Notes: generated by a model from the sequence alone, not told the origin. Positions 1,680-16,740 are shown, counted from the first letter of the stretch. The stretch: DNA of 64,000 nt from an uncultured delta proteobacterium (GCA_963766715.1 CAVYBH010000014.1:65994-129993), one strand, 5' to 3'. Made by a program: numbers and translations.

Positions 1680-2579
1680 TCAGCTGGCCAGCGCCGGGCC
1701 CGGGATGCCCGCCACCCCGGCCAGGTCGCTCTCGACGTCGTCGGCGATCCCGGCGAGCCCGAGCATGGCCTGTGCGAGGTGCGCCGCATGGAAGGGCGCG
1801 CCCGGGAGATCGACCGCGAGGAAGATCGCCCCGTCGGCGAGGACCACGCGGCAGAGCGTCATCCGCGCGTTCATCCGGTGCAGGAGCGCGAGCAGGTCCT
1901 CGTCCACGGACCCGGGCTGGGCGATCCGCACGTAGACCCGCACCACCGTGGGCGCCTCGCGAACCTGGACGAAGCCGATGCGCGAGCCGATCCGGACCGC
2001 CAGGTCGCCGTCCGCGTCGTAGGCGAGGGTGAGGTCGCCCATGGCGTTCCGCGCCGCCGCCAGCACCCGGGCGCGCAGCCGCGCGATCGGCGCCCGCGGC
2101 TTGCGCGGCTTCGGGCGCGCGGGCTCGGGCTCCCGGGGGATGTGGAGCGCCGGAAGGACGAGCGCGTGCCCCTCGGGATCGAAGGCCTTGTAGGTCAGGT
2201 CGCTGGGGTCGGGGATGCGGTGGACGAGCGAGAGGGTCCGGACCGCGATGCGGGCGATCTCCTCGGCGGGGACGGGCCTCGGGAACTCCCGGAAGAAGTT
2301 GGGGGAGCCCTTCGGCACCGGGACGGGCGAGGGCGAGTCGGGCGCGTGGGTGGGGGCCTTCCAGCCGAGCGCCTCGAGCGCCGCCACCTGCTCCTCGGTG
2401 AGCTTCTCGGCCGGCGCCAGGTAGCCGTTGCTCACGGTCTCGGAGAAGACGCCTTCCTCGGGGGAGGCGTTGAACTGGACGAAGCGGTGTCCGGCCCGGG
2501 AGGAGACGATGAGGATCTCGTCCTTCAGCACCGACAGGGCGCTGGCCAGGTCCCGCTCGAATGCGCTCCACTCGCTCAT
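1680..2579 (-). CDS. TY-Chap (T3SS-chaperone/YbjN-like) two-domain protein
   Basis: 299-aa ORF with a GGAGG RBS. The N-terminal domain has FVQF...ETVSNGYL...LEALGWKAP...SPNF and the C-terminal YbjN-like domain has DADGDLAVR...LHRMNAR...GIADDVESDL. Confidence 0.7.
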   Translation of the reverse strand: MSEWSAFERDLASALSVLKDEILIVSSRAGHRFVQFNASPEEGVFSETVSNGYLAPAEKLTEEQVAALEALGWKAPTHAPDSPSPVPVPKGSPNFFREFPRPVPAEEIARIAVRTLSLVHRIPDPSDLTYKAFDPEGHALVLPALHIPREPEPARPKPRKPRAPIARLRARVLAAARNAMGDLTLAYDADGDLAVRIGSRIGFVQVREAPTVVRVYVRIAQPGSVDEDLLALLHRMNARMTLCRVVLADGAIFLAVDLPGAPFHAAHLAQAMLGLAGIADDVESDLAGVAGIPGPALAS

Positions 2580-2597: not shown

Positions 2598-2618
2598 AGC
2601 CTACCGGGAGGACGGACA
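2598..2618 (-). promoter_or_regulatory. Putative WYL-activated promoter TGTCCGT-N8-TAGGCT
   Basis: The minus strand reads TGTCCGT cctcccgg TAGGCT immediately upstream of the RBS of the TY-Chap gene. Confidence 0.55.
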
Positions 2619-2630
2619 CGAGCCGGGCGT

Positions 2631-3598
2631 CTACCTGCGCGTACAACCGGGCGAGCTGCGCCACCCGGTCGCCGAGCTGCGCGCGCACGTCGGGCGGGCC
2701 GGCGATCTCCGCCTGGCCACCCCAGCCGAGAACCCAGCCGAGGAGGAAGTTGCCGGGCGCCAGCCGGGCCCGGACCGTGACCGCGCCATCGGCGTCCCGG
2801 GTGGCCCGATCCGGCCAGTGCTCGACCGCGAGGGCGGCCGCCTCGCCGGTGAAGCGGACCGCGACGTCCCGCTCCGCGCCCGACTGGAAGTAGAGCTGGC
2901 GGGTGCGGAAGCGATCGAGGGGCGGTCCCTTGTGGTCGCCGAAGATCCGGGTCCCCAGGACCACCGACGCGATCCGGTCGAGCCGGTAGAGGTGCTCCTC
3001 GCCCTTCGCCACGTTCCAGGCCGCCAGGTACCAGTGGCCGTCCTTGTGGAAGACGGTCCGCGGCTCCAGCGTGCGGGAGGAGAGCGTCCCGGAGGCCTCG
3101 GCGCGGTAGTCGACCGTCACCTCGACACGGCGCTCGATGGCCTCGGCGAGCGAGTCGGCCCACTCGCCGGGCGGGTCGACCTGGAAGTCGACGGCGCGCG
3201 AGAGGCCCCGGGCGGTGTCCCGGAAGGGCTCCGGGACGGCGCGGACCAGCTTCCTCAGGGCGGACGCCACCGTCCTGCCCGGCGCTCCGCTCGAAGGGGC
3301 GAAGCGCGGCGAGCAGCGCCGCCCCCTCGCGGAGGGACAGCGGGGGTGGTGACTCCAGGTGAAGGACGCGATCGACGACGACGCGACCCCCGTCGAGGGA
3401 GACCATCAGGCCGCCCTCCGGCATGGAGGGCCCGAAATCGAGCAGGCCCAGCGTGGTGACGATCTCCTCGATCTCCTTGGCGCTGCGCGCGCCCGTCACC
3501 TGGACGGCCCGCTCCATGGCGAGCCCCTTCGGCCCGGCGCGCCAGGCCTCCGGGATGAGGAGCAGCATCCTGCGGACCTGCGTGACCGGGTTCGTCAT
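2631..3598 (-). CDS. PafC-like HTH-WYL-WCX transcriptional regulator (frameshift ~3270; end approximate)
   Basis: The N-terminus MTNPVTQVRRMLLLIP...PLSLREGAALLAAL is in one frame. The WYL domain (YRAEASG...RTLEP...WYLAAWN...YRLDRI) and the WCX domain (FLLGWVLGWGGQAEIAGPPDVR) are in the next frame. ATGA overlap with the upstream gene. Confidence 0.85.
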
Positions 3599-4621
3599 CC
3601 CGCCGTCTCCCGGGCCAGGCGGCCGGACAGGGCGGCCAGGATCTCCCGCGCCATCTCGCGCCCCTCGGCGGGCTCGAGCAGCTCGGCCTCGGGTCCCCAG
3701 GCGAGCGCCTGCCGCACCAGGCCGCCCAGGTTGCGGACCTCGAGGCGGGCCACCCGGGCGTTGTCCGGCTCGCGCGAGAAGCGGGCCGTGGGCAGGAGCT
3801 TCGGCGCGAGCGCGGCGAGGGACCCCCGGAAGCGAACCAGCGCCATGCGAGGCTCGTGGACGAAGTAGTCCCAGGTCTCCTGGCGCGACCAGCTCCGGAT
3901 GTCGAAGTCGGCCGGGATGGCGTAGTCGGCCTTCTTGGCCTGCGCCGGGGCGACGGCGAGCGACTGCACGCGCTCCAGGTAGAACACGCGGACCGCGTCG
4001 CGCATGTGGCAGTGGCCGGCGAAGATCCAGTGCCCGCGGCGCCAGGCGTATCCGTAGACGTCGACGAGACGCTGGGTGACGGTGCCGTCGCTCTTGCGAT
4101 AGGCCACCTTCACCCGCTTCCGCCGCTCGATCGCGTCGGCCAGCGTGCCGAGCCACTTGCGGAGCGCGGCGGGCTCGGGGACGGACCACTGCTCCCTCGA
4201 GGAGCGCGGCCTTCGGCGGGAGCCCCTTCGCCCCCACCACGAGCTTGCGCAGCGCCGTCTCCAGGTCGTCGGAAAGGGGATGGTCGTGGGTGCGGAGCGC
4301 GGCCAGGCCGGCCATCCAGACCACCGAGGCCTCGTCGGGGGCGAAGTCGAGCCGGGGAAGGGTGCAGGAGGTGGCCTCCACGAGGTAGGCGCCCTCGCGC
4401 CCCTCCTCCTCGAGGAACTGCACCGGGATGCCCAGCTTCCGGAGGTCCTGCTTGTCGCGGGTCCACTTCTTCTCCCGCGCCTCGTCCTTGCCCGCGTAAT
4501 CGTCCGGGAAGGCCTCGTAGACCTGCTGCCGCGTCACCGGCTCGCCGTGGTTCGAGAGCCAGGTCGCGAGCTGGAGGAGTCGCGCCTCGGCCGCCGTTCC
4601 ACGCTTTCCGGTCGATGGCAT
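3595..4621 (-). CDS. PafB-like HTH-WYL-WCX transcriptional regulator (frameshift ~4185)
   Basis: ARLLQLATWL...VTRQQV...Y...EAREKKWTRDKQDLRKLGIPV matches the PafB-type winged HTH. WYL domain is YRKSDG...RLVDVYG...WIFAGHC...FYLERV and WCX domain is LVRQALAWGPEAELLEPAEGR. Confidence 0.85.
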
Positions 4622-4630
4622 GAGCGAGGC

Positions 4631-4652
4631 AGTGTAGCTCACGGTGCGTGAG
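4631..4652 (-). promoter_or_regulatory. -10 box TACACT with adjacent palindrome CTCACG-CAC-CGTGAG before the pafB-like gene
   Basis: TACACT (4636-4631) lies 9 nt before ATG 4621, and the inverted repeat spans 4638-4652. Confidence 0.4.
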
Positions 4653-5198
4653 ACGGCGAGTTCAGCTCGGCCCCTTCACCGAGTGACAGGACCAGTCCCG
4701 GCGAGGGTCGGGGAGCCCGGTGGTGCGCAGGTGGCAGAGCACCGTGCCCCGGGCCGGCTGCTCGCGGAGCGCCGAGGGGAAGAGCGCGGTCGCGATTCGC
4801 GCGAGCGGCGGGCGCAGCCGGACGGTGACGCGGACGGGTGGCTCGGGGCTGCCCGAGTCGAGGAACCCCGCGGTGGAGAAGAACCGGAGGTCGAAGCCGG
4901 GCGGGGCGAGCCCCCGCCGGGCCCGCGCCCGCATCACCCTCACCCGGAGGACGCGGTCGAGGCGGAAGAGCCGGAAGGCCTTCCTGCGGTGGCAGAAGGC
5001 CGCCAGGTGCCAGACGCCCTCCCGCCAGGCGAGCCCCAGGACGTCCACCTCCCGGTCGGTCCGGATGCCGCCACCGTCCTCGTACCGGAACCACGCCCGG
5101 CGTCCCTCGGCGAGGGCGCGGGCGAGGGGAAGGAGGGCCTTCCGGGCGGGGCGGGGCTGGGTCACGGCATGGAGAGCCCCCGGGGGCTCGGAGGCCAT
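4639..5198 (-). CDS. Stand-alone WYL-WCX protein lacking an N-terminal HTH (frameshift ~4705)
   Basis: FRYEDGGG...REVDVLGLAWREGVWHLAAFCHRRKAFRLFRLDRV is a canonical WYL domain. The WCX-like end GLVLSLGEGAEL lies in the shifted frame, with a stop at 4639. Confidence 0.8.
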
Positions 5199-5217
5199 CT
5201 TGGCCGGCCCACGGACA
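5197..5217 (-). promoter_or_regulatory. Putative WYL-activated promoter TGTCCGT-N8-CAAGAT
   Basis: Same motif and spacing, in the 44-bp gap before the stand-alone WYL gene. The hexamer overlaps the annotated ATG, so the true start may be a downstream GTG. Confidence 0.4.
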
Positions 5218-5242
5218 CCGGCCGCCCGCCAGGCGCCGAGGC

Positions 5243-6856
5243 TCAGCCGGGCAGGCCGGGCCAGGAGCCGGTGGCCCCGGCCGGACCCACCACGCGCGCA
5301 GCCGTGAGCGCGCGGGTGAGGGCGATGTGCATGCGGGTTCCGAAGCGCTCCCGGTCCGCCGCTCCCACGTCCGCGACCAGGATGACCGGGCGCTCCAGCC
5401 CCTTCCAGCGCAGGAAGGTGTCGGCGACCAGCCGGTCCTCCATGCCGTCGGACCCGGCGCCCACGAAGGCGTGCCGGCCCAGCGCCGGGGCGTGGTGGAC
5501 GGCGTCCTTCGCGTTCTGGCCGCGCAGCGACACGACGCCCACGTCGCCGGGCTTCACGCCTTGTGAATAGAGCCGGTCGATCTCCGCCCCCACGCAGGCG
5601 GCCACCCGGGCCGGGTCGTCGCAGGGGACGAGCCCGAGCGTCCCGTCGAGGACCGCCTTGCGGACGAGCGCCTCGTCGGAGGGCTCGCCCAGGTAGCGGC
5701 GCGCCAGCGCCTCGATGCCCGGAGGCGAGCGCCGGCCCCGGCCGAGCGGGAAGGGAGCGGGGAAGAGGCCGGCCGGGGGCTCGCGGTCCGGCCAGAAGGC
5801 CTGCCCGGTGTCGCGGAAGGCCCAGAGCCGCTTCCCTTCGGCCAGGCGCCCCACCAGGTACCAGGCCTCGAAGTCGAAGTCCTGCGCCTCGTCGACGACA
5901 ATCGAGTCCCAGCGCGGCGTGCAGACGTCGGCGGCGCGCTCGCAGAACTTCCGCCAGGTCGAGGTGTCGGAGAAGTCGGCGCCGCCGTCCGGGCCGTCCA
6001 CCTTCTCGGCCTCCGACTTGGCCAGTCCACCCACGGTGTGGACCTCAATCCCGCTGCCGTCGAGCCGCGCGCGCAGCCAGCGCCCGAGGGGCTGGGTGAA
6101 GCAGAGGAGCAGCGGCTTCCGCCCCGCCGCGAGCTCCCGGCGGGCGGCCTCCACCGCGAGCAGCGTCTTGCCCGTGCCGGCCCCGCCCTGCACCAGCGCC
6201 CGCTCCTGCCCGGAGAGCAGGTCGAGGGTGGCGAGCTGGATCTCGTCGAGGTCGAGGTGCGCGCGGCGCGCCTCCTCCACCCGGTGGCCGAGGGACAGGG
6301 AGGGCGCCCAGGTCTCGCCCCACATCTGGTGGAGCCGCTTCGTCCACTCCCCGCGCCCGCCGTCGGCCGGGGGCAGCGCGCGCTCGATCACGGCCGGGAG
6401 GTACTGGTCCAGCCAGGAGAGGTGGTTCTTGCCCAGCACGACGCCGCGGAGGTCGTCCTGCCACGGCTGCTCGTCGAACTCGACGTCGGGAAAGGCCACC
6501 GCCGCGCCCCAGGCCGGAGGCCAGCAGTTCCACTCGCCGAGCCGATCGCGAAGGCGCCGCACGAAGCCGTTTCCCTGGTCGAGCGGGGCCTTCTCGAGCT
6601 GCTTCCCGTTCGAGTACCAGAGGCCGCCGCGCTGCTCGATCTGCCCGCCCTTCACCTCGAGCACGAGCAGGCCGCGCTCCGGGTGGGCCAGGACGAAGTC
6701 GCCCTCTCCCAGGAAGTTCTTGCCGTCGCGGATGCGCAGGGAGTGCCAGGCGGTCCAGCCGGCGGGGAGCCCGGCCTTGAGCCGGGACCAGACGGTCCGC
6801 TCCCCGTGGGACGACGCGGGCCGGGGAGCGTCGGACGGCCAGAGCTTTCCGGGCAT
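5243..6856 (-). CDS. NERD nuclease fused to an SF1 (UvrD-like C-terminus) helicase/ATPase
   Basis: NERD motif HSLRI...EGDFVLAHPERGLLVLEVKGG, Walker A GGAGTGKT, Walker B VVDEAQD, motif V WKGLERP and motif VI HIALTRA. Confidence 0.85.
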   Translation of the reverse strand: MPGKLWPSDAPRPASSHGERTVWSRLKAGLPAGWTAWHSLRIRDGKNFLGEGDFVLAHPERGLLVLEVKGGQIEQRGGLWYSNGKQLEKAPLDQGNGFVRRLRDRLGEWNCWPPAWGAAVAFPDVEFDEQPWQDDLRGVVLGKNHLSWLDQYLPAVIERALPPADGGRGEWTKRLHQMWGETWAPSLSLGHRVEEARRAHLDLDEIQLATLDLLSGQERALVQGGAGTGKTLLAVEAARRELAAGRKPLLLCFTQPLGRWLRARLDGSGIEVHTVGGLAKSEAEKVDGPDGGADFSDTSTWRKFCERAADVCTPRWDSIVVDEAQDFDFEAWYLVGRLAEGKRLWAFRDTGQAFWPDREPPAGLFPAPFPLGRGRRSPPGIEALARRYLGEPSDEALVRKAVLDGTLGLVPCDDPARVAACVGAEIDRLYSQGVKPGDVGVVSLRGQNAKDAVHHAPALGRHAFVGAGSDGMEDRLVADTFLRWKGLERPVILVADVGAADRERFGTRMHIALTRALTAARVVGPAGATGSWPGLPG

Positions 6857-6886
6857 CCGCGCAGCCTGACACGCGGGAGCCGTCCG

Positions 6887-7441
6887 TCAACCGCGCGACC
6901 GCCCCACGTGGGCCGCGAACCGCTCGACGAAGCGCTCCTGGTCCGGGACCTCGATGGCGCCCGGCCGGGCCCGGCGAACCGCCTCGATGGCCGTCGACGG
7001 CGCCTTTCCCGTCGCGACCAGGCAGCAGGCGGCGATGGTCCCGCTGCGCCCCAGCCCTCCCAGGCAGTGGACGACCACGGTCTCCGCGCGCGCCAGGCTC
7101 CGCAGGATCCGGGTGACGAGGCGGGACGTCGCCTCCAGCGAGGAGGGGACGGAGACGTCGGGGATGGGGAACCAGAAGCTCGCGATGCCGGCCCGACGGA
7201 GCACGCCCCGGAGGCCGTCGATGGCGAAGCGCTCCATCTCGAGCTCCTCCATGAGGGTGACGACCACGTCCGCTCCGTGGGCGTCGCGCAGGAGGGCCAC
7301 GTCCATGCGGAGGAGGTTCTCCGACGGGTCGCGGCCGGGGCGCCACCGACCCGGCGCCTGCGTGAGCCCCAGCCGTCCCGGCAGCCCGTGGTCGCTCGAG
7401 GCGAGGAAGTCGACCCGCGCCTCGCGGGGGTCGGCCGCCAT
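6887..7441 (-). CDS. CDKN3-like / protein-tyrosine-phosphatase-fold phosphatase
   Basis: GRLGLTQAPG...VVTLMEELE...FPIPDVSVP...VVVHCLGGLGRSG contains the CX5R loop, followed by VRRARPGAIE. TGATG overlap with the upstream protease gene. Confidence 0.88.
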   Translation of the reverse strand: MAADPREARVDFLASSDHGLPGRLGLTQAPGRWRPGRDPSENLLRMDVALLRDAHGADVVVTLMEELEMERFAIDGLRGVLRRAGIASFWFPIPDVSVPSSLEATSRLVTRILRSLARAETVVVHCLGGLGRSGTIAACCLVATGKAPSTAIEAVRRARPGAIEVPDQERFVERFAAHVGRSRG

Positions 7442-8121
7442 CAGCAGACCTCCAGGACGACGACCCCCAGCTGCTCGAGGAGGTCGGTGCCGACGATGGC
7501 CTCCACGCCGAGCAGGCGCATCGCCATCGAGACCGACGAGGGGGGCTCGGCGAAGTCGACCGTCACCTCCCGGCCCCGGAAGACGGCCCGGCCGCGGCGA
7601 AGCGGCACCTCGAAGTCCCCCTCGCCGTGGAAGAAGTCGCGCGCCCGGCCGGCCACGGGGAACCCGCTGGCCTGCGCGGCGGACAGGTACGACACCGGAG
7701 CGCCCGTGTCGACGACCGCGGTCACCGGGGCGCCCCAGATGAGGAGGTCCTCGATGATGAACCGCTGCCGGACGGCGCCGGGCACGTGGGTGGCGAAGCC
7801 CGGCGCGAGGTCGATGCGGAGGAGACGCGAGGTGAAGTCGAGGACCAGCCGGTGGCCCCAGAGCAGGTCGGTGCCGAGCAGCAGGTCGAAGTCGAAGTCC
7901 GGCGCCACGCCGGGAAGCTGCCGGATGTGCTCCACCGCGGTGTCGACGGTGAACCCGAGGATGCCCGGGGAGACCCGGTGCTCGTCGCCGAGGAGCCGCA
8001 TCCCGTCGCACCGCCCGAAGGTGACCGACGAGCCCGTGTCGAGCAGCGCCCTCCGGTCCCGGATGCGGGTGACGACGTGTCCGGCGACCAGGTCGAAGGG
8101 AGCGAGGAGAGGGCCAGGCAT
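7441..8121 (-). CDS. Two-lobed retropepsin-like aspartic protease (no signal peptide)
   Basis: Two D-T-G motifs (LLDTGSS, VVDTGAP), each followed by a LLGTDLL/IVGTDLL psi-loop motif. Confidence 0.8.
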   Translation of the reverse strand: MPGPLLAPFDLVAGHVVTRIRDRRALLDTGSSVTFGRCDGMRLLGDEHRVSPGILGFTVDTAVEHIRQLPGVAPDFDFDLLLGTDLLWGHRLVLDFTSRLLRIDLAPGFATHVPGAVRQRFIIEDLLIWGAPVTAVVDTGAPVSYLSAAQASGFPVAGRARDFFHGEGDFEVPLRRGRAVFRGREVTVDFAEPPSSVSMAMRLLGVEAIVGTDLLEQLGVVVLEVC

Positions 8122-8130
8122 TACACGGCG

Positions 8131-8170
8131 AGTGTCGAGCGTGGACGGACATGGGCAGGAACCCGTCCGT
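8131..8170 (-). promoter_or_regulatory. Putative WYL-activated promoter TGTCCGT-N8-GACACT within the inverted repeat ACGGAC-N14-GTCCGT
   Basis: Motif at 8151-8131, with the hexamer 9 nt before ATG 8121. The inverted repeat arms are 8145-8150 and 8165-8170. Confidence 0.5.
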
Positions 8171-8223
8171 GCCCTCACAGGGTGTAGACGAGCCACTGCA
8201 GCCAATCTGACGCCCCGTGAGGG

Positions 8224-11200
8224 TCAGACCCAGCGCATTCCCCCGTCGGCCGTGAAGAGCAGCCCGCATCTCACCGCGCCTGCCCTTGCGACGCCCAGCT
8301 CGACCAGGATTCGCCCGTAGCTCCGCACCTGCTCGACGTAGGCGGGGTGCGTTTCGCGGACGTCGCCGGTGGGCGGGCTGTCGGTCTTGAAGTCCACCAC
8401 GCTCACCTGTCCATCCCGGGCGCCCAAGAGGTCGACGTAACCCTGGAGCAGCAGTCCGTCCCGACCCAGCGCGACGGGGTACTCCAGCCGGAGGTCTTCC
8501 CCTGGGACGCGCCGCATCCCTGCTGCCTCGAGCGCGGAGAGGGCCCGGGTCACGTCGTCGGCCGCCTCGGCGTGGCGCTCGGCCAGCCCGGTCTCCCGCA
8601 CCACCCGCGCGACCGCCCGGGCGGCGTCCAGTCCCGGCTCCCGGAGGCAGAGGCCGATCGCCCGGTGGACGGTGTCGCCGAAGACGCGGCCGAAGCGGCT
8701 CTCCCGCAGCCGGGGGCGCTCTCCGGCCCGCCCCTCGCCCTCGGACTCGGCGTCGACCCGCTCGTGGGCCTCGGTGGAGACACCCTTCGGCACGAAGCGC
8801 GGCGTCCCCGATCCGGCCGACGCCGAATCCCATTCCTTCCCGACTCGCCTCGACGGCTCGGCGACCTCCCGGGGGAGCCGTGCCGGTGGAGCCTCCACGT
8901 CCGTGGCCCAGGCGGGAGCGGCGTCGTCGGTCCACTCCTCGAGGACGTCGAGGGCAGGGGAGGAAGTTCCGACGAGGGCCGGGGTCACGAGCCCGGACTT
9001 GCCCGTGGTGACCACCGGCAGGACGAGGAGCTCGCGGGCCCGCGTCGCCGCGACGTAGACGAGGCGCCTGCGCTCGGCGGCCGCGTAGGCCTCCTCGCGC
9101 CCGAGGAAGCCGCTCTCCTCGGGCTCCTGCCAGGAGAGGCCGTCGATGTCGAGTGCCCACGCACTCCCGGTGCGCTCCACGAACCAGTGGGTCTGTCCCT
9201 TGCGCGGGGCGAAGCGGGCGTGCGCGTCCCACCAGGCCACGACCGGGAACTCGAGCCCCTTGGCCTGGTGGATCGACATGATCTGCACGGCCTCGGCGCC
9301 CACCGGGCGTGGGGGATCGAGGCCGACCGGATCCAGGGCCCAGGCCCGCAGGTGTGAGGTGACGCCGTCGAAGTCGAGCCCCTCCGCTGCGGCGATCCGT
9401 TCCAGCTCGAAGCACAGCTCACGCAGGCGCTCCAGCCGCTGCGAGCCGTTCGGTCCGAAGGCGACGGCGCGCCCGATTCCGGTGCGCTCGAGGAGGTCGC
9501 GCGCGGTCTCCCCGGGAGTCCGCTCGAACCGGCGCCGGCGCAGCTCCCCGACCAGCGCCTGGGCGGCGCGGGCCCGCTCGATGCCGGGGTCTCCCGGTCC
9601 GTCCCCGGCCGCCCCGGCCCGGACCAGGTCGGCCAGGTCCACGGCGAAGAAAGGCTCGCGGAGGAGCGCGGCCGTGGCGACGCCGTCCCGCGCGTCGGCG
9701 AGGGCCCGCAGGGCGAGCAGGAACTGCCGGTGAATAGGGTCCTGGAGGAAGAGGCTCGCTCCGCGGGCCGTCCACGGAACCCCGAGCCGGTCGAGCTCGT
9801 CGGTGAGCAGGCCCAGGTTGGTGGTGACGTGGGCGAGGATGGCGACGTCCCCGTAGCGGAATCCCCGCGCCTCGAGCGTCCGGAGCCACGTGGCGAGCAC
9901 GGTGGCCTCCCTCGCCCGGTCGGGCCCCACCTTCTCGTCCTCGGTCGAGAAGGGCAGGACCACGACGCAGGCCGTCCGATCGCCTTCGCGCCCGGCGTCG
10001 AGGGGCCGATTCACGACCGTGCCCGCGTCCGGATCGAAGTCGCCCTTCCCTGGCTGGGCGCGCCCCAGGATGTCGTCGAACCGGGCGTTCAGGTGGGCGA
10101 TGAGGGCGGGCTGTGAGCGGAAGTTGGCCGTGAGGGCGACCGCCAGGTGGCTGCCCTTCAGGACGATGGCGCGAACCGCGTCGTACACGGAGATGTCGGC
10201 CCGACGGAACCGGTAGATCGACTGCTTGGGGTCGCCGACCAGGGTCAGCTTCCCGGGGGCGAGCCGGACGTCGCCCCACTGCCCGGCCGCGGCGCCCTCT
10301 TCGCAGAGGTAGAGGACGATCTCGGCCTGCAGGGGATCGGTGTCCTGGAACTCGTCCACGAACACGTGGTCGAAGAGCGACTGCATCTCCAGCCGGACCT
10401 CCCGGCTGGACCGGAGCAGGTCCCGCAGGCACAGGAGGAGGTCGACCTGGTCCACCGCGCGGTGACGCGCCTTCACCTTCTCGTAGGTCGCCACCACGGC
10501 GGGGAACGTGCGGACGAGCCGCGTGGCCATCCAGCGGTGGAGGGGACCGGTGATGCGTTCCTCGTAGGTGGGCTCGCTGCCCGGCTTGCCCCAGGCCTTC
10601 CAGGCCGCCCATCCGTCCGCGTCGTCCGGGAAGTCCCTGCGCATCTGGAGATCCGCGGGGCGCGGCGCCGACCGGACGAACCGGGCCACCTCCCGGTACA
10701 GGGTGACGGGGTCGGACGCGGTGACGAGGGGCTCGAGTTGGCGCACGGCGCGCCTCATCCAGTCCGGACCCTTCCCCGTGCCGGTGGACGCGCGGGCCAG
10801 CGCGACGAATTCCTCGATGGCCTGGCCGACGCGCGCGGCCGGGAACGGCGCCGGCGGCCCGTCGGCCGGGGGCACGTCGCGGTGCAGGATGAAGCCATCG
10901 AAGAGCGCGTCCAGGCCGTGACGATCCCTCCAGGCGGTCTCCTTCGTCTCGGCGCGGACCTCGGCGGCGAGGGCGATCCGGATGTACTCCTGGGCCTCCT
11001 TCGCCCGCTCGGGTGGACAGGTGGTCCCGGCCAGCTCCTCGACGAGCCGACCGGCCTCGGAGGCCTGGAGCAGGATCTCGAAGGTCTCGTAGGTGAGCGC
11101 GGAGGCGTCCTCCACGATCTCGTAGGAGGGGCTCAGCCGGGCCTCGACCGGGCGCCGCCGGAGCAGCCGGTCCGCGAAGCCGTGGATCGTCCCGATGAAG

Positions 11201-11523
11201 GCGGTGTCCGCGGCGGAGAGCGCGAGCGCGAGCCGCTCCCGCCGGCGCGTCGAGGGCGCCCCGGCCAGCTCGGAGAGGAGCTTCTCGCGCACGCGGAGCT
11301 TCAGCTCGCCGGCGGCCTTGCGGGTGAAGGTCACCGCCGCGATGCGCTCGAGCGGGACGGCGTCCTGCGAGTCGTCGGACGGCGCCACCATCTCGACGAG
11401 CCGCGCGACGAGGAGCGTGGTCTTCCCGGTTCCCGCACCGGCGTCCACCAGGACGTTCACGCCGCGTGACTGGATGGCGGCGTCGCGCTGCGCCTGGTCC
11501 GGAGCCGGCCGTCGAGCGCTCAT
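8224..11523 (-). CDS. addA: AddA/UvrD-like SF1 helicase with C-terminal RecB-family nuclease
   Basis: Helicase motifs AGAGTGKT, TFTRKAAGEL, VDEFQDT, VGDPKQSIYRFRRAD, NFRS, SIHQAKGLEF and ERRRLVYVAATRA. Nuclease motifs G-x-x-VH, GYVDLL, VVDFKT and Q-x-x-x-Y. Own start ATG 11523 after GAGGAGG. Confidence 0.9.
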   Translation of the reverse strand: MSARRPAPDQAQRDAAIQSRGVNVLVDAGAGTGKTTLLVARLVEMVAPSDDSQDAVPLERIAAVTFTRKAAGELKLRVREKLLSELAGAPSTRRRERLALALSAADTAFIGTIHGFADRLLRRRPVEARLSPSYEIVEDASALTYETFEILLQASEAGRLVEELAGTTCPPERAKEAQEYIRIALAAEVRAETKETAWRDRHGLDALFDGFILHRDVPPADGPPAPFPAARVGQAIEEFVALARASTGTGKGPDWMRRAVRQLEPLVTASDPVTLYREVARFVRSAPRPADLQMRRDFPDDADGWAAWKAWGKPGSEPTYEERITGPLHRWMATRLVRTFPAVVATYEKVKARHRAVDQVDLLLCLRDLLRSSREVRLEMQSLFDHVFVDEFQDTDPLQAEIVLYLCEEGAAAGQWGDVRLAPGKLTLVGDPKQSIYRFRRADISVYDAVRAIVLKGSHLAVALTANFRSQPALIAHLNARFDDILGRAQPGKGDFDPDAGTVVNRPLDAGREGDRTACVVVLPFSTEDEKVGPDRAREATVLATWLRTLEARGFRYGDVAILAHVTTNLGLLTDELDRLGVPWTARGASLFLQDPIHRQFLLALRALADARDGVATAALLREPFFAVDLADLVRAGAAGDGPGDPGIERARAAQALVGELRRRRFERTPGETARDLLERTGIGRAVAFGPNGSQRLERLRELCFELERIAAAEGLDFDGVTSHLRAWALDPVGLDPPRPVGAEAVQIMSIHQAKGLEFPVVAWWDAHARFAPRKGQTHWFVERTGSAWALDIDGLSWQEPEESGFLGREEAYAAAERRRLVYVAATRARELLVLPVVTTGKSGLVTPALVGTSSPALDVLEEWTDDAAPAWATDVEAPPARLPREVAEPSRRVGKEWDSASAGSGTPRFVPKGVSTEAHERVDAESEGEGRAGERPRLRESRFGRVFGDTVHRAIGLCLREPGLDAARAVARVVRETGLAERHAEAADDVTRALSALEAAGMRRVPGEDLRLEYPVALGRDGLLLQGYVDLLGARDGQVSVVDFKTDSPPTGDVRETHPAYVEQVRSYGRILVELGVARAGAVRCGLLFTADGGMRWV

Positions 11524-14500
11524 TCCTCCTCCTCCTTCGCCTGCTTCGTCGCGAAGAAGGCCGCCACGGCTCCCTCCGCCTGGTCCGCGCCGGCGGACGC
11601 CCCTCTCGCGGACCGGCGCGCCGCAGACCGGAGCGAAGCAGCAGTAGTCGCAGTCCTCCGCCCGCGAGGTGGGCGGGAAGGCGTGCTCGGAGAGGAGCCC
11701 GGCCGCGACGGAGAGCCAGCCCTTCGCCGCCGCGTCGAGCTGGGCGTGGTCGCCGCGGAACGCCCGCTCCGAAGGGCCGCTGGCGTAGACGTAGGCGGCC
11801 TGGACCTTCCTCGGGAGGCCCCATTCCGCGGCCATCTTCCTCGCCACCAGGCCGTACAGGCCGAGCTGGACGTCGCGCACCGGGGTCGGGCCCGCCTCCT
11901 CGCCCGTGCGCGGGTGCTCCCGGCCGGTCTTGAGGTCGCGGACCAGCGCGTGATCGCCCTCGACGTCGAGCCGGTCGATGTAGCCGCGGACGTGGAGGGG
12001 CGTCCCGCCCGCGTCGAGGACCACGCCGGAGAAGGCGCGCTCCACGCCCACGAAGCGGGAGAGCCGGAGGCCCGCGTCGTAGTCGAGGAAGGCCTCCAGG
12101 TCGCGCACCAGCCTGGCCCGCTCCTTGTCGAGGACTCCCTTGCCCACGAGTGGATACCCGCCGCAGAGCCTGTCGAAGGAGTCGTCGGCGAACGTCCTCA
12201 GGACCCTCTTCCAGTGGGCCAGGTCCTTCTTCCCGGAGACGAAGGCCTCGCCGTGCGCGGCGTAGAAGTGCTCGGCCGCCTCGTGGAACATGCTGCCGTA
12301 GGAGAGCGCATCGATCTCGCGGATCGAGGGCGCACCGTCCGGTTCCTTCCAGCCCAGCACCCGCTCGCGGAGGAAGCGAAGCGGACAGGTGAGGAGCCGC
12401 TCCAGAGCCGACGCCGAGATCGGGTGCTCCGGGTCGAGCCCAGGGAAGCCGGGGAGCGGGCCGTCGTCCCCCAGGATCCCGTCGGCCGGCCCGAGATCGT
12501 CCCGGCTGCGCAGCGAGAGGATGGAGCCGATGTCGAGGCATGCCGCGCCGACCCAGGCAGGAGGCACCTCGCCCGTCGCGGCCGCCCGGTCGAGCCACTG
12601 GGCCTGCGAGACCGGGTTCGCGCTCCGGAACGCCAGCGCGGCCTCGCGAGCGGGCTCGAAGGACGTCCGCTGGAGCGAGGCCAGGTCGGGTATCGCCTCC
12701 AGCCGCTGCGCGTCGGGGCGCCCCAGCGCGGCGCCCACCTCGACCAGCAGGGACGAGATCTCCCGGTCGCTCCGCTCGGCGTCCGCGTGCGGGACCGAGA
12801 GCGCGATTCGCGCGGTGGCTCCGCGCAGCGCCCGATCGAACGAGTGGAGCTGGGCCAGGACCCGGTCGCCCGAGACGGGGACCAGGATCCCCGCCTCTCC
12901 CCGCATGCGGTCGGGCAGTACCGGGTCCTCCCGGACCGCCGAGGGGAGCGCCCCCTCGCAGAGGCCGACGATGCGGACGGCCTGGAACTCGAGGCCCGCC
13001 GCGGATGCGACGGTGCCCACATAGACCGCCGGCTGGCCGAAGCGGACGGTGCCGAGGCGGAGCGACCCGAGTTGCTCCTCGATGAAGGACATCGCGCCGG
13101 CGCCGCGGACCGTCGAGGCGACCGCGTCGGTCGTGACGCGCTCCAGGGTCTCGCCGAGCAACGTCCGGACGGCCGCGCCCTTCCCGGGGAGGCGCACCCA
13201 GGTCTCCAGGAAGCCGGTGAGCGCCGGGGCGATCTCGGCGAGGGGGCGCGCCTCGACGACCTGCCTCGCCAGGCACACCAGCGCGTCGATCGCAGGGCGC
13301 GCCGCACGGAGCGAGTCGAGGAGGGGTCGCAACTTCCACCCCTCCCGTGCCTCGGCCTCCTCGTCCAGCTCCTCGACCATCCTCGCCAGCTGGGCCTCGC
13401 GGGCCGCGACCCGCGGCGACCATTCGAGGGCGCCCTCGGGACGGGCGGAGCTCCCGCCCGCGGTGCCCACCCCCCACGCGATGGCGAGGGCGGTGCCGGG
13501 CGCGAGGCGGTCGCGGTCGCCGACCTTCACCTCCAGGCAGGGCAGGAGGTCGCTCATCGACCCGGCTGGAAGGAAGGCACCGAGTGCACGGACGACAGCC
13601 AGGACGCGCGCGCCCGCCGCGGTGGCCACGAGCGGGAGTCCCCCGGCGACGTGGACCGGGAACTCGCCGGCCGGCCAGGGCAAGCGCGAGATGCGGCTCG
13701 CGAGCATGGGAGCGAGGGGGTGCTGGTGCGGGACGAGGACCGCCACGTCCTCGAGCGGCGTCCTGTGCGAGAGGACCTCCCGCGACACCCACTCGGCCGC
13801 GGCCTCCACCTCGGTCTCGACCCCTGCGTACTCCTCGAGGGTCACGGTGCCGTCGGCTCCCCGGCTGCGCGGCCGGGAAGGGTCGGCGAGCGTCTGGGGG
13901 GCGCGAAGATGTACCGGCACAGGAGGTCGCGCTCCGTGGCGGTGGCGCCCGGCGGAGGTGCCTCCTCGAGGGCGGCCCGGGCCTCCGGGCCGAAGAGGGC
14001 CTCGAGGCGCTCGAGGTGGCGGGGGCGGATGGGGCGCGCGGCGAAGAGCGCGAAGCGTGGCCCCGGGCAGGGAACGCAGGAACCGGGCCTCGGCGGCCGT
14101 TTCACGTCCCGTCACGGTGACCAACGTCGGGCCCGTCGCCGGGCGAGCACCGCCCCGCAGGGCCTCGGCGGCCAGGAGGAAGATGCGCGCGCCGGTGGCG
14201 CTCCGGCCCGCGGCGGCGTCGAGGCGGCGCCAGAGCAGGCTCACGTCGCGCCATTGCGAAGACGTCCGGGGGAGCCCGTCGGGAGAGAGCCCCGCGCCTT
14301 CGAGGTCGCCGATGGCGGCGGCGAAGGCGTCCGGCCAGCCCTGCGTGTTTCGCAGGAGCTGCAGGTCGAAGTACTCCAGGGGAAGCTCATCCTGGAAGAG
14401 CCCGAGGAGGCGGGCCGCCCGGAGCGACTCCTCGCCCGGAAGGAGATCGCTGCCGGCCTCCGCCAGGATCTCCTGGGCCAGGGTCAGCGGGCCGACGAAG

Positions 14501-14679
14501 CGGGTGCCCGCCAGGGCGGCCGGGCGTCCGGAGCGGAGGAGGGCCCGGCGGAGGGAGTGGGCGTGGCGCTCGGAGGGGACGAGAGCCGTCCGGATGGGAA
14601 GGGCTCCCGACGCGGCGAGCGCGGCCACGGCCGAGGCCTGGTCGGAGAGCGAGTGGAAGATTGACCAGGAAGTGCCCAT
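11520..14679 (-). CDS. addB: AddB-like protein: inactive helicase-like N-terminus plus PD-(D/E)XK nuclease with 4Fe-4S Cys staple (frameshifts ~14050, ~13900, ~11600)
   Basis: ISASALERLLTCPLRF, GYIDRLD, RDLKTG, QLGLY and CDYCCFAPVC are present. The corrected C-terminus FFATKQAKEEEE* overlaps the addA start (ATGA). Confidence 0.85.
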
Positions 14680-14689
14680 ACGGGCACGC

Positions 14690-14710
14690 ACTCTACCGGT
14701 CGGACGGACT
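14690..14710 (-). promoter_or_regulatory. Putative WYL-activated promoter AGTCCGT-N8-TAGAGT
   Basis: Lies in the 30-bp gap before addB, with the hexamer 10 nt before ATG 14679. Confidence 0.5.
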
Positions 14711-15690: not shown

Positions 15691-16740
15691 GTGAGTGCGC
15701 CCCCGGTCCCCCGCGATCGCCCCCTCGTGACGGCCGTGGTGGCGGCCCACGATGCCGAGCGGCACGTCGGCCGCGCACTCGCATCGCTGTCCGCGCAGAC
15801 GGTCGACGACCTCGAGATCGTCGTGGTGGACGACGGCTCGAGGGACGGCACCGCATCGGTGGTGGAGCGCATGGCGCGGGAGGACGCGCGGATCCGGCTC
15901 GTCCGGCTCGGCCAGAACCGCGGGCAGGCCGCGGCGCTCGACGCCGGGGTGGAATGCGCGCGCGGGCGTTTCGTCGCGCTCCTCGACGCCGACGACGAGG
16001 CGATGCCCACGCGGCTCGAGCTGCAGGTGGCTGCGTTCGACAGGGACCCCGGGCTCGTCCTGGTCGGCGGCGCCGTCGTTCCCTTCTGCGACCGGCACGG
16101 CGTGGAGGGGCCGTCCTGGCGCTACGCGGAGGAGGACGGACCCGTTCGCGTCCGGACCCTCTTCAAGTCGGAGGTCATCTCGGGGGCCATCACCCTGGAC
16201 CGGGAGCGGATGACCGGGCACGGCCTTCGTTTCGACCGGACCCTGCGGCTCGGGGTGGACTGGGCGATGTCGTTCGCGGCGATGCAGGTGGGACGGGTCG
16301 GCAACGTCGGACCGGTGGTGATGCGCTACCGCATCCACCCCGGCCAGATGACCACCGGCATGCTCGACGACCTGGGCTCGGACAGCACCCGGATCCGGCG
16401 GGGCGTGCTCGCGTGGCTGGGCGTCCAGCCCACCGACGAGGAGATGCGAATCCACCTGGCCATCAGCCCGTGCAACTACTGGCCCTTCGGGTCGCACCCG
16501 TTCTTCCGGCGACGCCGCGTCTCGGTCCTCGGCGACGCGGTGCGATGGCTGGCGCGCCTCTCGGACGCGGCGGTCCGGACCGGGCGCGTGCCCGCGGCGG
16601 CGATGCGGGAGTATGCCGAGGAGATCGTCGCGCTCGTCGAGGGGGCGCTCGAGGAGCCGGAAGGAGAGCCGGTCGTCGCCCCCAGGTACTGCCCGGTCGC
16701 GACCCCGCTTCCCTGCGTCGTGGACGAGGCGTGCCGGTAG
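15691..16740 (+). CDS. Glycosyltransferase family 2
   Basis: PLVTAVVAAHDAE...VVVDDGSRDGT...GRFVALLDADD...RLELQ. GTG start chosen at 15691. Confidence 0.85.
   Translation: MSAPPVPRDRPLVTAVVAAHDAERHVGRALASLSAQTVDDLEIVVVDDGSRDGTASVVERMAREDARIRLVRLGQNRGQAAALDAGVECARGRFVALLDADDEAMPTRLELQVAAFDRDPGLVLVGGAVVPFCDRHGVEGPSWRYAEEDGPVRVRTLFKSEVISGAITLDRERMTGHGLRFDRTLRLGVDWAMSFAAMQVGRVGNVGPVVMRYRIHPGQMTTGMLDDLGSDSTRIRRGVLAWLGVQPTDEEMRIHLAISPCNYWPFGSHPFFRRRRVSVLGDAVRWLARLSDAAVRTGRVPAAAMREYAEEIVALVEGALEEPEGEPVVAPRYCPVATPLPCVVDEACR

Follow-up and report, generated by a model that had tools for sequence, protein, structure and literature searches.

We analyzed a 64,000-nucleotide stretch of DNA from an uncultured delta proteobacterium (GCA_963766715.1 CAVYBH010000014.1:65994-129993), referred to here as the window. 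The closest relatives of the locus belong to the Anaeromyxobacteraceae of the phylum Myxococcota and include cultured carriers. The minus strand carries a block of genes in the order addB-like, addA-like, aspartyl protease, CX5R phosphatase, NERD helicase, a WYL gene lacking a helix-turn-helix (HTH) domain, pafB, pafC, and TY-Chap. An earlier note on this sequence had pointed to a putative promoter motif in four gaps of the block, (T/A)GTCCGT followed 8 nucleotides later by an NAnnnT hexamer, and had likened it to the element used by the mycobacterial activator PafBC. The four sites are:

2598..2618, minus strand: Site 1, TGTCCGT-cctcccgg-TAGGCT, before the TY-Chap gene; ATG at 2579, 18 nt past the hexamer, with a GGAGG ribosome-binding site
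5197..5217, minus strand: Site 2, TGTCCGT-gggccggc-CAAGAT, before the HTH-less WYL gene; GTG at 5165, 31 nt past the hexamer
8131..8151, minus strand: Site 3, TGTCCGT-ccacgctc-GACACT, before the aspartyl protease-phosphatase genes; ATG at 8121, 9 nt past the hexamer
14690..14710, minus strand: Site 4, AGTCCGT-ccgaccgg-TAGAGT, before the addB-like gene; ATG at 14679, 10 nt past the hexamer (near-leaderless)

The coordinates, strand, and spacing claimed for the four 21-mers proved exact, with an NAnnnT hexamer followed by a start codon within 9-31 nt in each case, and their placement in intergenic gaps holds in general, the exception being Site 1, which formally lies within a pafC frame that lost its stop relative to its orthologues. 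The heptamer by itself proves little, as the note had cautioned: WGTCCGT occurs 12 times in the window versus 13.97 expected. In the 4.2-Mb source genome, the loose form, WGTCCGT-N-NAnnnT, was likewise not enriched at N8 (8 occurrences versus 1-16 at other spacers), whereas the strict form ending in TAnnnT was, occurring 5 times at N8 but between 0 and 2 times at any of 12 other spacers. A weight matrix built solely from 114 sites of other genomes ranked the window sites 3rd, 7th, 11th, and 12th genome-wide, with scores of 14.5-27.0 bits (27.0 for Site 1 and 19.3 for Site 3) versus at most 8.8 for the remaining 8 heptamers of the window; this test is partly circular because the training sites were chosen with the pattern of the earlier note. 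We refer to TGTCCG(T)-N8-TAnnnT as the island motif, to set it apart from a second, core motif, GTCRGA-N9-TA, described below.

Conservation at orthologous gaps, which the note had made a condition, was found for Sites 1, 2, and 4 but not for Site 3 (0/6 close protease orthologues). The motif lies upstream of 5 of 5 TY-Chap orthologues and 3 of 4 addB-like orthologues. At 18 orthologous WYL starts, selected by eye from a list that also holds internal WYL domains, 7 have the island motif, 4 the core motif, and 7 neither. The unusual hexamer at the WYL promoter also has a counterpart, since the weak -10 sequences CACGAT and GACGAT recur in 6 of the 7 motif-bearing WYL starts, in favor of the note's NAnnnT form at this promoter. 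Site 2 is likely an autoregulatory input into the WYL-pafB-pafC block; Site 3 is the weakest of the four, lineage-specific, and possibly a chance match. A perfect 16-nt palindrome lies at 5175-5190, in what is predicted to be the 5' leader of the WYL transcript, and GC-rich hairpins occupy the equivalent place in three relatives (L037, L038, and L210).

Spacing was assessed in 36 Anaeromyxobacteraceae genomes, excluding the source genome, with the reversed motif as control. TGTCCGT-Nx-TAnnnT occurred 73 times at N8 (control 5), 28 times at N9 (control 8), and 4 times at N7 (control 8). In a held-out set of 27 loci around the regulator pair (331 kb, overlapping no locus used earlier), 16 occurrences of GTCCGT at the island spacing were counted, whereas the null mean was 0.17 and the maximum 1 in 30 resamplings; nine of the other offsets had none and one had 2. 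Comparison loci gave a single occurrence at this spacing in fifteen distant WYL loci and none in nine core-type loci. The 75 family sites are nearly all intergenic according to our own gene caller, follow the extended consensus TGTCCGTCCCCnsCGTAnnCT, and, when aligned, show no -35-like signal upstream; the strongest signal of ordinary promoters in this genome is TTGAC at the -35 position. Transcripts are expected to start 6-9 nt past a -10 hexamer, and an ATG lies at this distance in 26 of the 75 sites versus 322 of 2090 intergenic TAnnnT hexamers of this genome, the orthologues among the former being non-independent. Because the ATG falls where the transcript would start, the hexamer is likely a real -10, leaderless starts serving here as a proxy for transcription starts. 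TGTCCG(T)-N8-TAnnnT is a spacing-locked motif, often ahead of leaderless starts. GTC as a general promoter feature was considered and rejected, for it favors no particular offset among 224 leaderless-type promoters of this genome and does not reach the 25 strongest signals found with 1224 intergenic -10 candidates.

Several variants of the motif were also observed. TGTCCGT-N9-TAGAAT precedes an Rrf2 regulator gene, is conserved across a genus (L141, L135, L136, L140, L142, and L143), and makes up about a quarter of the N9 hits, and other N9 box variants stand before genes for Cas3, an MmeI-like enzyme, phage integrases, and DUF2779 proteins (L133, L153, L148, L149, and L144). TGTCCGG/T-N8-TATATT is repeated, each time ahead of conserved non-coding sequence in which no gene is predicted (G000:C2:280722 and C18:40995 of the source genome; L085), and divergent back-to-back copies of the motif, a few tens of bases apart, occur in several genomes (L001:9028-9091; L046:5667-5716; L052:9092-9193).

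The regulatory genes of the block are:

2631..3598, minus strand: pafC homologue, island type; one frameshift near 3275-3297, stop lost near 2633
3595..4621, minus strand: pafB homologue of the island type (HTH-WYL-WCX), with EAREKKWTRDK as recognition helix and a single frameshift at about 4178-4191
4631..4636, minus strand: TACACT, a hexamer resembling a -10, separated from the pafB ATG by 9 nt; no motif accompanies it
4662..5165, minus strand: HTH-less WYL(-WCX) gene; 3' end apparently frameshifted; in some relatives fused to the PafB N-terminus

A second pair, found order-wide and called the core pair here, lies on another contig of the same genome (L071:9265-11237). The genes adjoining the motif are true PafB and PafC homologues, as the note had supposed: among solved structures, both pairs match PafB and PafC best (E 1.9e-11 for an intact orthologue of the window pafB against PafB 7p5x_AY; E 2.6e-23 for the island PafC family profile against PafC 7p5x_AX). 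Adjacent pafB and pafC genes, each encoding an HTH-WYL-WCX protein, are present in the island orthologues and the core pair, the window copies being frameshifted. NCBIfam holds no model for either pair. With residue roles taken from PMC8635444 and PMC11804915, island PafB retains R8, R50, K52, R56, and Y76, and core PafB retains E42, A43, R46, E49, R50, and K52, of which R46 and R50 read the two guanines in mycobacterial PafB. Across 23 island PafBs, R50 and K52 are invariant, position 46 is K in 17 and R in 6, and position 49 is T, S, or N in all; the window PafB has K46 and T49. Both pairs retain R181, R204, R208, and R214, 4 of the 6 PafB residues that PMC11804915 names for the single-stranded DNA (ssDNA) site, and island PafC retains R201/R204. 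Sigma70 keeps R416 and R442, and its S446, the partner of PafC D62, is Ala in the phylum anyway; a predicted complex of the island PafC HTH with sigma70 region 4 scored 0.01, which speaks neither for nor against the contact. In a tree, all 23 island PafB rows group together in a single clade (100/99), with the core Myxococcota PafBs as its sister group; this tree gives no root or direction of transfer because it contains no true actinobacterial PafB. Wing length was rejected as the cause of the one-base shift described below, since island wings range from about 10 to 16 residues while the spacing stays N8. Fusions were seen on both sides, the HTH-less WYL domain being joined to the island PafB N-terminus in some genera (L052, L054, L057, and L224) and core PafB and PafC forming a single protein of 670-700 aa in another family (L064, L065, and L068).

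Several frame breaks were seen in the block: one each in pafB and pafC, an apparently broken 3' end of the WYL gene, and out-of-frame stops of addB and pafC. As 4 of 26 other genes tested in the assembly are likewise split across frames, assembly error is a plausible cause of the breaks. TACACT-like hexamers occupy the equivalent place before pafB in most of the 22 relatives listed, and the window copy is likely a separate basal promoter of pafBC.

The core motif lies upstream of recA (with TATGAG as the -10), dnaB, uvrD/pcrA, ruvB, and ssb of this genome (G000:C8:259416, C8:680057, C12:644636, C13:252594, and C1:40779 for recA, dnaB, uvrD, ruvB, and ssb, respectively), and all five sites have TGC ahead of the -10. 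Counted to the first T of the -10, its GTC lies 15 nt upstream, which is exactly the mycobacterial geometry, versus 14 nt in the island motif. In the 36 family genomes, the core box GTCGGAC-N8-TAnnnT occurs 92 times (control 35). Of 30 fetched core-motif loci, 22 precede dnaB, ruvB, uvrD, recG, recJ, recN, or smc, and 2 precede an HTH-less WYL gene. Beyond the family, TGTCAG-N10-TA is found before one recA in 4 of 5 genomes. In one lineage, the gene fronted by the core motif is that for the island WYL protein or pafB, and island sites precede the targets, which suggests a cascade running from the core motif through the island regulator to its targets.

The targets of the two motifs differ. The note had expected its motif before recA, uvr, and ssb, and this expectation failed: the island motif lacks the core repair regulon, recA included, that typifies PafBC, for it is not at recA, ssb, uvrD, ruvB, or dnaB, where the core motif stands instead. 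The source genome has four further island sites, before a gene for an HD protein and, divergently, an sbcD-sbcC pair, before a leader containing an RNA that resembles an S-adenosylmethionine (SAM) riboswitch, and before a vWA gene (hexamer 7 nt before the ATG). The proposed physical clustering of regulator and regulon is therefore partial: four sites lie in the block, but these four more are either some 55 kb distant on its contig or on a different one. Across the family genomes, the motif fronts genes for TY-Chap, YbjN, vWA, ADP-ribosylglycohydrolase (ARG), ARPP, HD and HAD proteins, SbcD, and AddB-like proteins, as well as HNH and TPR proteins, PLD-helicases that score as type IV restriction enzymes, and numerous unknowns. 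Judged from these annotations, the island targets are likely anti-phage or conflict genes together with repair genes. The SAM-riboswitch-like RNA begins 35 nt past its hexamer (E 2.5e-4, below the Rfam gathering score). At L001:13299-13447 and 15910-16000, an island-motif promoter stands directly upstream of such an RNA, with a TPR-like gene and an additional metK following, and promoter and riboswitch may act in series.

The presence of the motif follows that of the pair. In 59 family genomes at least 90% complete, with pair presence judged by one query, TGTCCGH-N8-TAnnnT gave 210 hits in the 42 genomes with the island pair versus 14 in the 17 in which the pair was not found (reversed controls 45 and 21, respectively), that is, 5.0 versus 0.8 hits per genome and, within one genus, 5.1 versus 0.6. 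In pair-bearing genomes, the sbcD promoter has the island motif at all 6 of 6 loci, whereas in G021 (100% complete, core pair only), the sole pair-less genome with sbcD, it has the core motif. Among 19 ARG-family loci in pair-less genomes, there was one island-type site.

We consider it probable that the N8 motif is a hybrid -26/-10 promoter run by PafB and PafC of the type encoded in the window, and that the core pair reads GTCRGA-N9-TA at repair genes. Here, the WYL tunnel would be the binding site for ssDNA that arises through damage or phage infection, as the conserved arginines suggest; by analogy with mycobacterial PafBC, the HTH of PafB would read the GTC box and PafC would hold region 4 of sigma70. 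The housekeeping polymerase would thereby open a promoter that has no -35 box, and often-leaderless transcripts of the TY-Chap, vWA, ARG, SbcCD, AddAB-like, HD, phosphatase, and nuclease genes would be made. The core pair would read its own motif at recA, dnaB, uvrD, ruvB, ssb, recG, recJ, and recN, and the recognition-helix changes (R46K in most, E49T/S/N in all), combined with the one-base shift, would keep the two regulons apart. Duplication of PafBC would then have given rise to two orthogonal sigma-adaptation promoter codes. The broader scenario, which we hold at even odds, is that myxobacteria use sigma adaptation twice: ancestral PafBC would be the sought-after LexA-independent activator of recA and core repair, and a duplicate with a re-tuned recognition helix and a register moved by one base would run an orthogonal, ssDNA-triggered anti-phage regulon (ARG, TY-Chap, vWA, SbcCD, AddAB-like, and restriction-like nucleases), as a cascade in lineages in which the core motif drives the island regulator. 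The putative PafBC-type mechanism outside Actinobacteria put forward in the note is partly supported, by the hybrid -26/-10 promoter behavior, one base shorter, the homology of the pair, and the co-occurrence of motif and pair, but not by a recA-type regulon.

A number of observations weigh against the assignment of the island motif to the island pair and of the core motif to the core pair. The spacing lock is not absolute, as N9 exceeds its control (28 versus 8), and the motif of Site 3 is absent at all 6 close protease orthologues (two low-identity rows having been dropped). On the protein side, the guanine-reading R46 is replaced by K in 17 of 23 island PafBs, and the island GTC box is one base closer to the -10 than in the PafBC structure; W70 (the wing contact), R211, and Y196 are missing in both PafBs (R211 being Y or H and Y196 being I or F), and D62 of PafC is acidic in the core pair and in only a minority of island PafCs. 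The window pafBC copy itself may be dead, given its frameshifted pafB and pafC. Co-occurrence is confounded because regulator and targets travel together, and kin genomes are not independent in the counts: a vWA orthologue was found in 0 of 17 pair-less genomes, by a search without a positive control, and sbcD in 1 of 17, so the switch of the sbcD promoter is a single case. G022 (98% complete) lacks the island pair and has 3 hits, one of them leaderless before an ARG gene. Finally, the core motif was not found at uvrD (0/4) or ruvB (0/5) in genomes of other families, nor, in a crude scan, at uvrB, recG, or recJ of this genome.

The main alternative, which we regard as unlikely, is that the core pair reads both motifs by sigma adaptation and that the island pair is a target or modulator traveling with the island. 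The GTC triplet common to both boxes, the N9 variants of the island box in excess of the control, the island-type sites retained by G022, and the core motif borne by the island WYL operon in some lineages would all fit this explanation. It is harder to reconcile with the core box itself, which is not enriched at the island spacing (17 versus 36 in the control, in the 36 family genomes), with helix position 49, which differs between 23 of 23 island and 9 of 9 core PafBs, with the core motif at sbcD where only the core pair is present, and with the background counts in genomes without the island pair.

A different reader of the box, whether island-borne or supplied by the host (an alternative sigma factor, for instance, or another activator), appears improbable. 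Co-occurrence would be compatible with an unnoticed traveling factor, as would the sites of G022 without the pair. However, sigma regions 4 and 2 need a spacer of 16-18 nt, and an alternative sigma factor is unlikely because the 8-nt spacer is far too short for them; no other regulator recurs in the gene lists of the inspected loci, for which no systematic search was made; and the GTC core and geometry fit the PafBC element.

Slightly more improbable still is that the motif is the operator of a WYL repressor released by a ligand, e.g., ADP-ribose, along the lines of the repressors discussed in the relevant section of PMC9503650. The targets match the ARG-centred set (ARG, R-P, HD and HAD phosphatases, vWA, TY-Chap, ARPP, and nuclease-helicases), and both CapW and BrxR are WYL repressors, but the nearest structures are those of PafBC and not of CapW or BrxR. 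Repression is unlikely because the box is one-sided, that is, non-palindromic and in a single orientation, stands at a fixed distance to the -10, and is paired with promoters that have no -35 box and thus little to repress. Chance matches or ordinary housekeeping promoter sequence, for which one could cite the heptamer alone at chance, GTC without offset preference, and the unconserved Site 3, are very improbable and, for the motif as a whole, largely refuted by the held-out count (16 versus 0.17 expected), the conservation at orthologous gaps, and the tracking of the pair by the motif.

Comparison with known systems places the proposed island activator closest to mycobacterial PafBC, the RecA-NDp promoter of which reads tGTCgg-N10-tA-N3-T (PMC8635444). 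Mycobacterial PafBC is activated in an ssDNA-dependent manner and inserts between sigma region 4 and the DNA, with transcription starting about 7 nt past the -10. The two share the adjacent HTH-WYL-WCX pair, the non-palindromic GTC box at a fixed distance to the -10, the lack of a -35, and, in the island pair, R50, K52, R56, and the four ssDNA arginines; the core pair and core motif agree further in geometry and R46/R50. They differ in that the system described here lies outside Actinobacteria, with two pairs per genome and an extra HTH-less WYL gene, that the island box is TGTCCG(T), one base closer, with conflict genes and not core repair genes as targets, and that island R46 is mostly K, E49 is T, S, or N, D62 is mostly lost, and W70 is absent. 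The island system works like PafBC but departs from it in spacing and regulon, whereas the core system looks like a plain PafBC member outside Actinobacteria. In Myxococcus xanthus, the PafB/PafC homologues MXAN_1359/1360 are known (PMC9705874 and PMC12288472); the former states a PafBC-binding sequence for 24 of 51 indirectly LexA-affected genes, and the homologues are set aside in the latter. In the text covered, these papers describe a PafBC-like pair in Myxococcota but no second pair or shifted motif, and the motif itself is not given. In the literature covered, neither of the two motifs is described for Myxococcota, nor is a duplicated pair with shifted register; figure-only supplements (Fig. 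S3 in PMC9705874) and subscription papers lay outside this coverage and could bear on the core motif.

For ARG-centred systems, the section of PMC9503650 devoted to them proposes WYL factors as one-component repressors sensing ADP-ribose. Across relatives, the gene set is the same (ARG, R-P/HD/HAD/calcineurin phosphatases, vWA, TY-Chap, ARPP, nuclease-helicases, and a WYL factor), but that section gives no DNA site, whereas a heterodimeric activator, a defined motif, and a dispersed regulon are indicated here, and the promoter architecture points to activation by the WYL factor, not repression. Among WYL activators outside Actinobacteria, DdaA of Moraxellaceae (PMC12392091) also links DNA damage to phage defence, but it is a single protein that binds about 50 bp upstream of the start and to which, its authors say, sigma adaptation may not apply. 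DriD of Caulobacter is likewise described as a WYL activator outside Actinobacteria.

The remaining features of the block are:

1680..2579, minus strand: TY-Chap3/TY-Chap1 chaperone, a target (Pfam PF22552, PF22551)
5243..6856, minus strand: NERD nuclease-helicase
6887..7441, minus strand: CX5R phosphatase (PTP-SAK / Tc-R-P)
7441..8121, minus strand: retropepsin-like aspartyl protease (match below Pfam cut-offs)
8187..8212, minus strand: CGTCAG-N16-CGTC, a degenerate remnant of a TGTCA(C/G)-N16-CGTC box, upstream of Site 3
8224..14679, minus strand: AddB-like (14679-11520) and AddA-like (11523-8224) nuclease/helicase, a single frame here

The AddB-like and AddA-like genes run together in one frame because, compared with its orthologues, addB has its stop out of frame. 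No motif lies directly upstream of the NERD gene in the window or in 7 orthologues, and no ARG was found in the block, to which that search was limited. At the protease orthologues (L037, L038, L040, L042, L210, and L220), the box TGTCA(C/G)-N16-CGTC, which we take to be ECF41-like, stands upstream instead of the island motif.

In the literature found, sigma adaptation has so far been shown only for actinobacterial PafBC, and two explicit promoter motifs, together with matched pairs and cultured strains, offer a route to test it in a Gram-negative phylum. The pairs constitute a natural experiment in how a sigma adaptor changes its box and spacing, and further candidate defence genes can be catalogued by means of the motif. 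The findings suggest that, in ARG/TY-Chap conflict systems, WYL factors can act as activators, in contrast to the repressors that have been proposed. They also provide a candidate regulator for the damage response by which myxobacteria act independently of LexA, so far unexplained.

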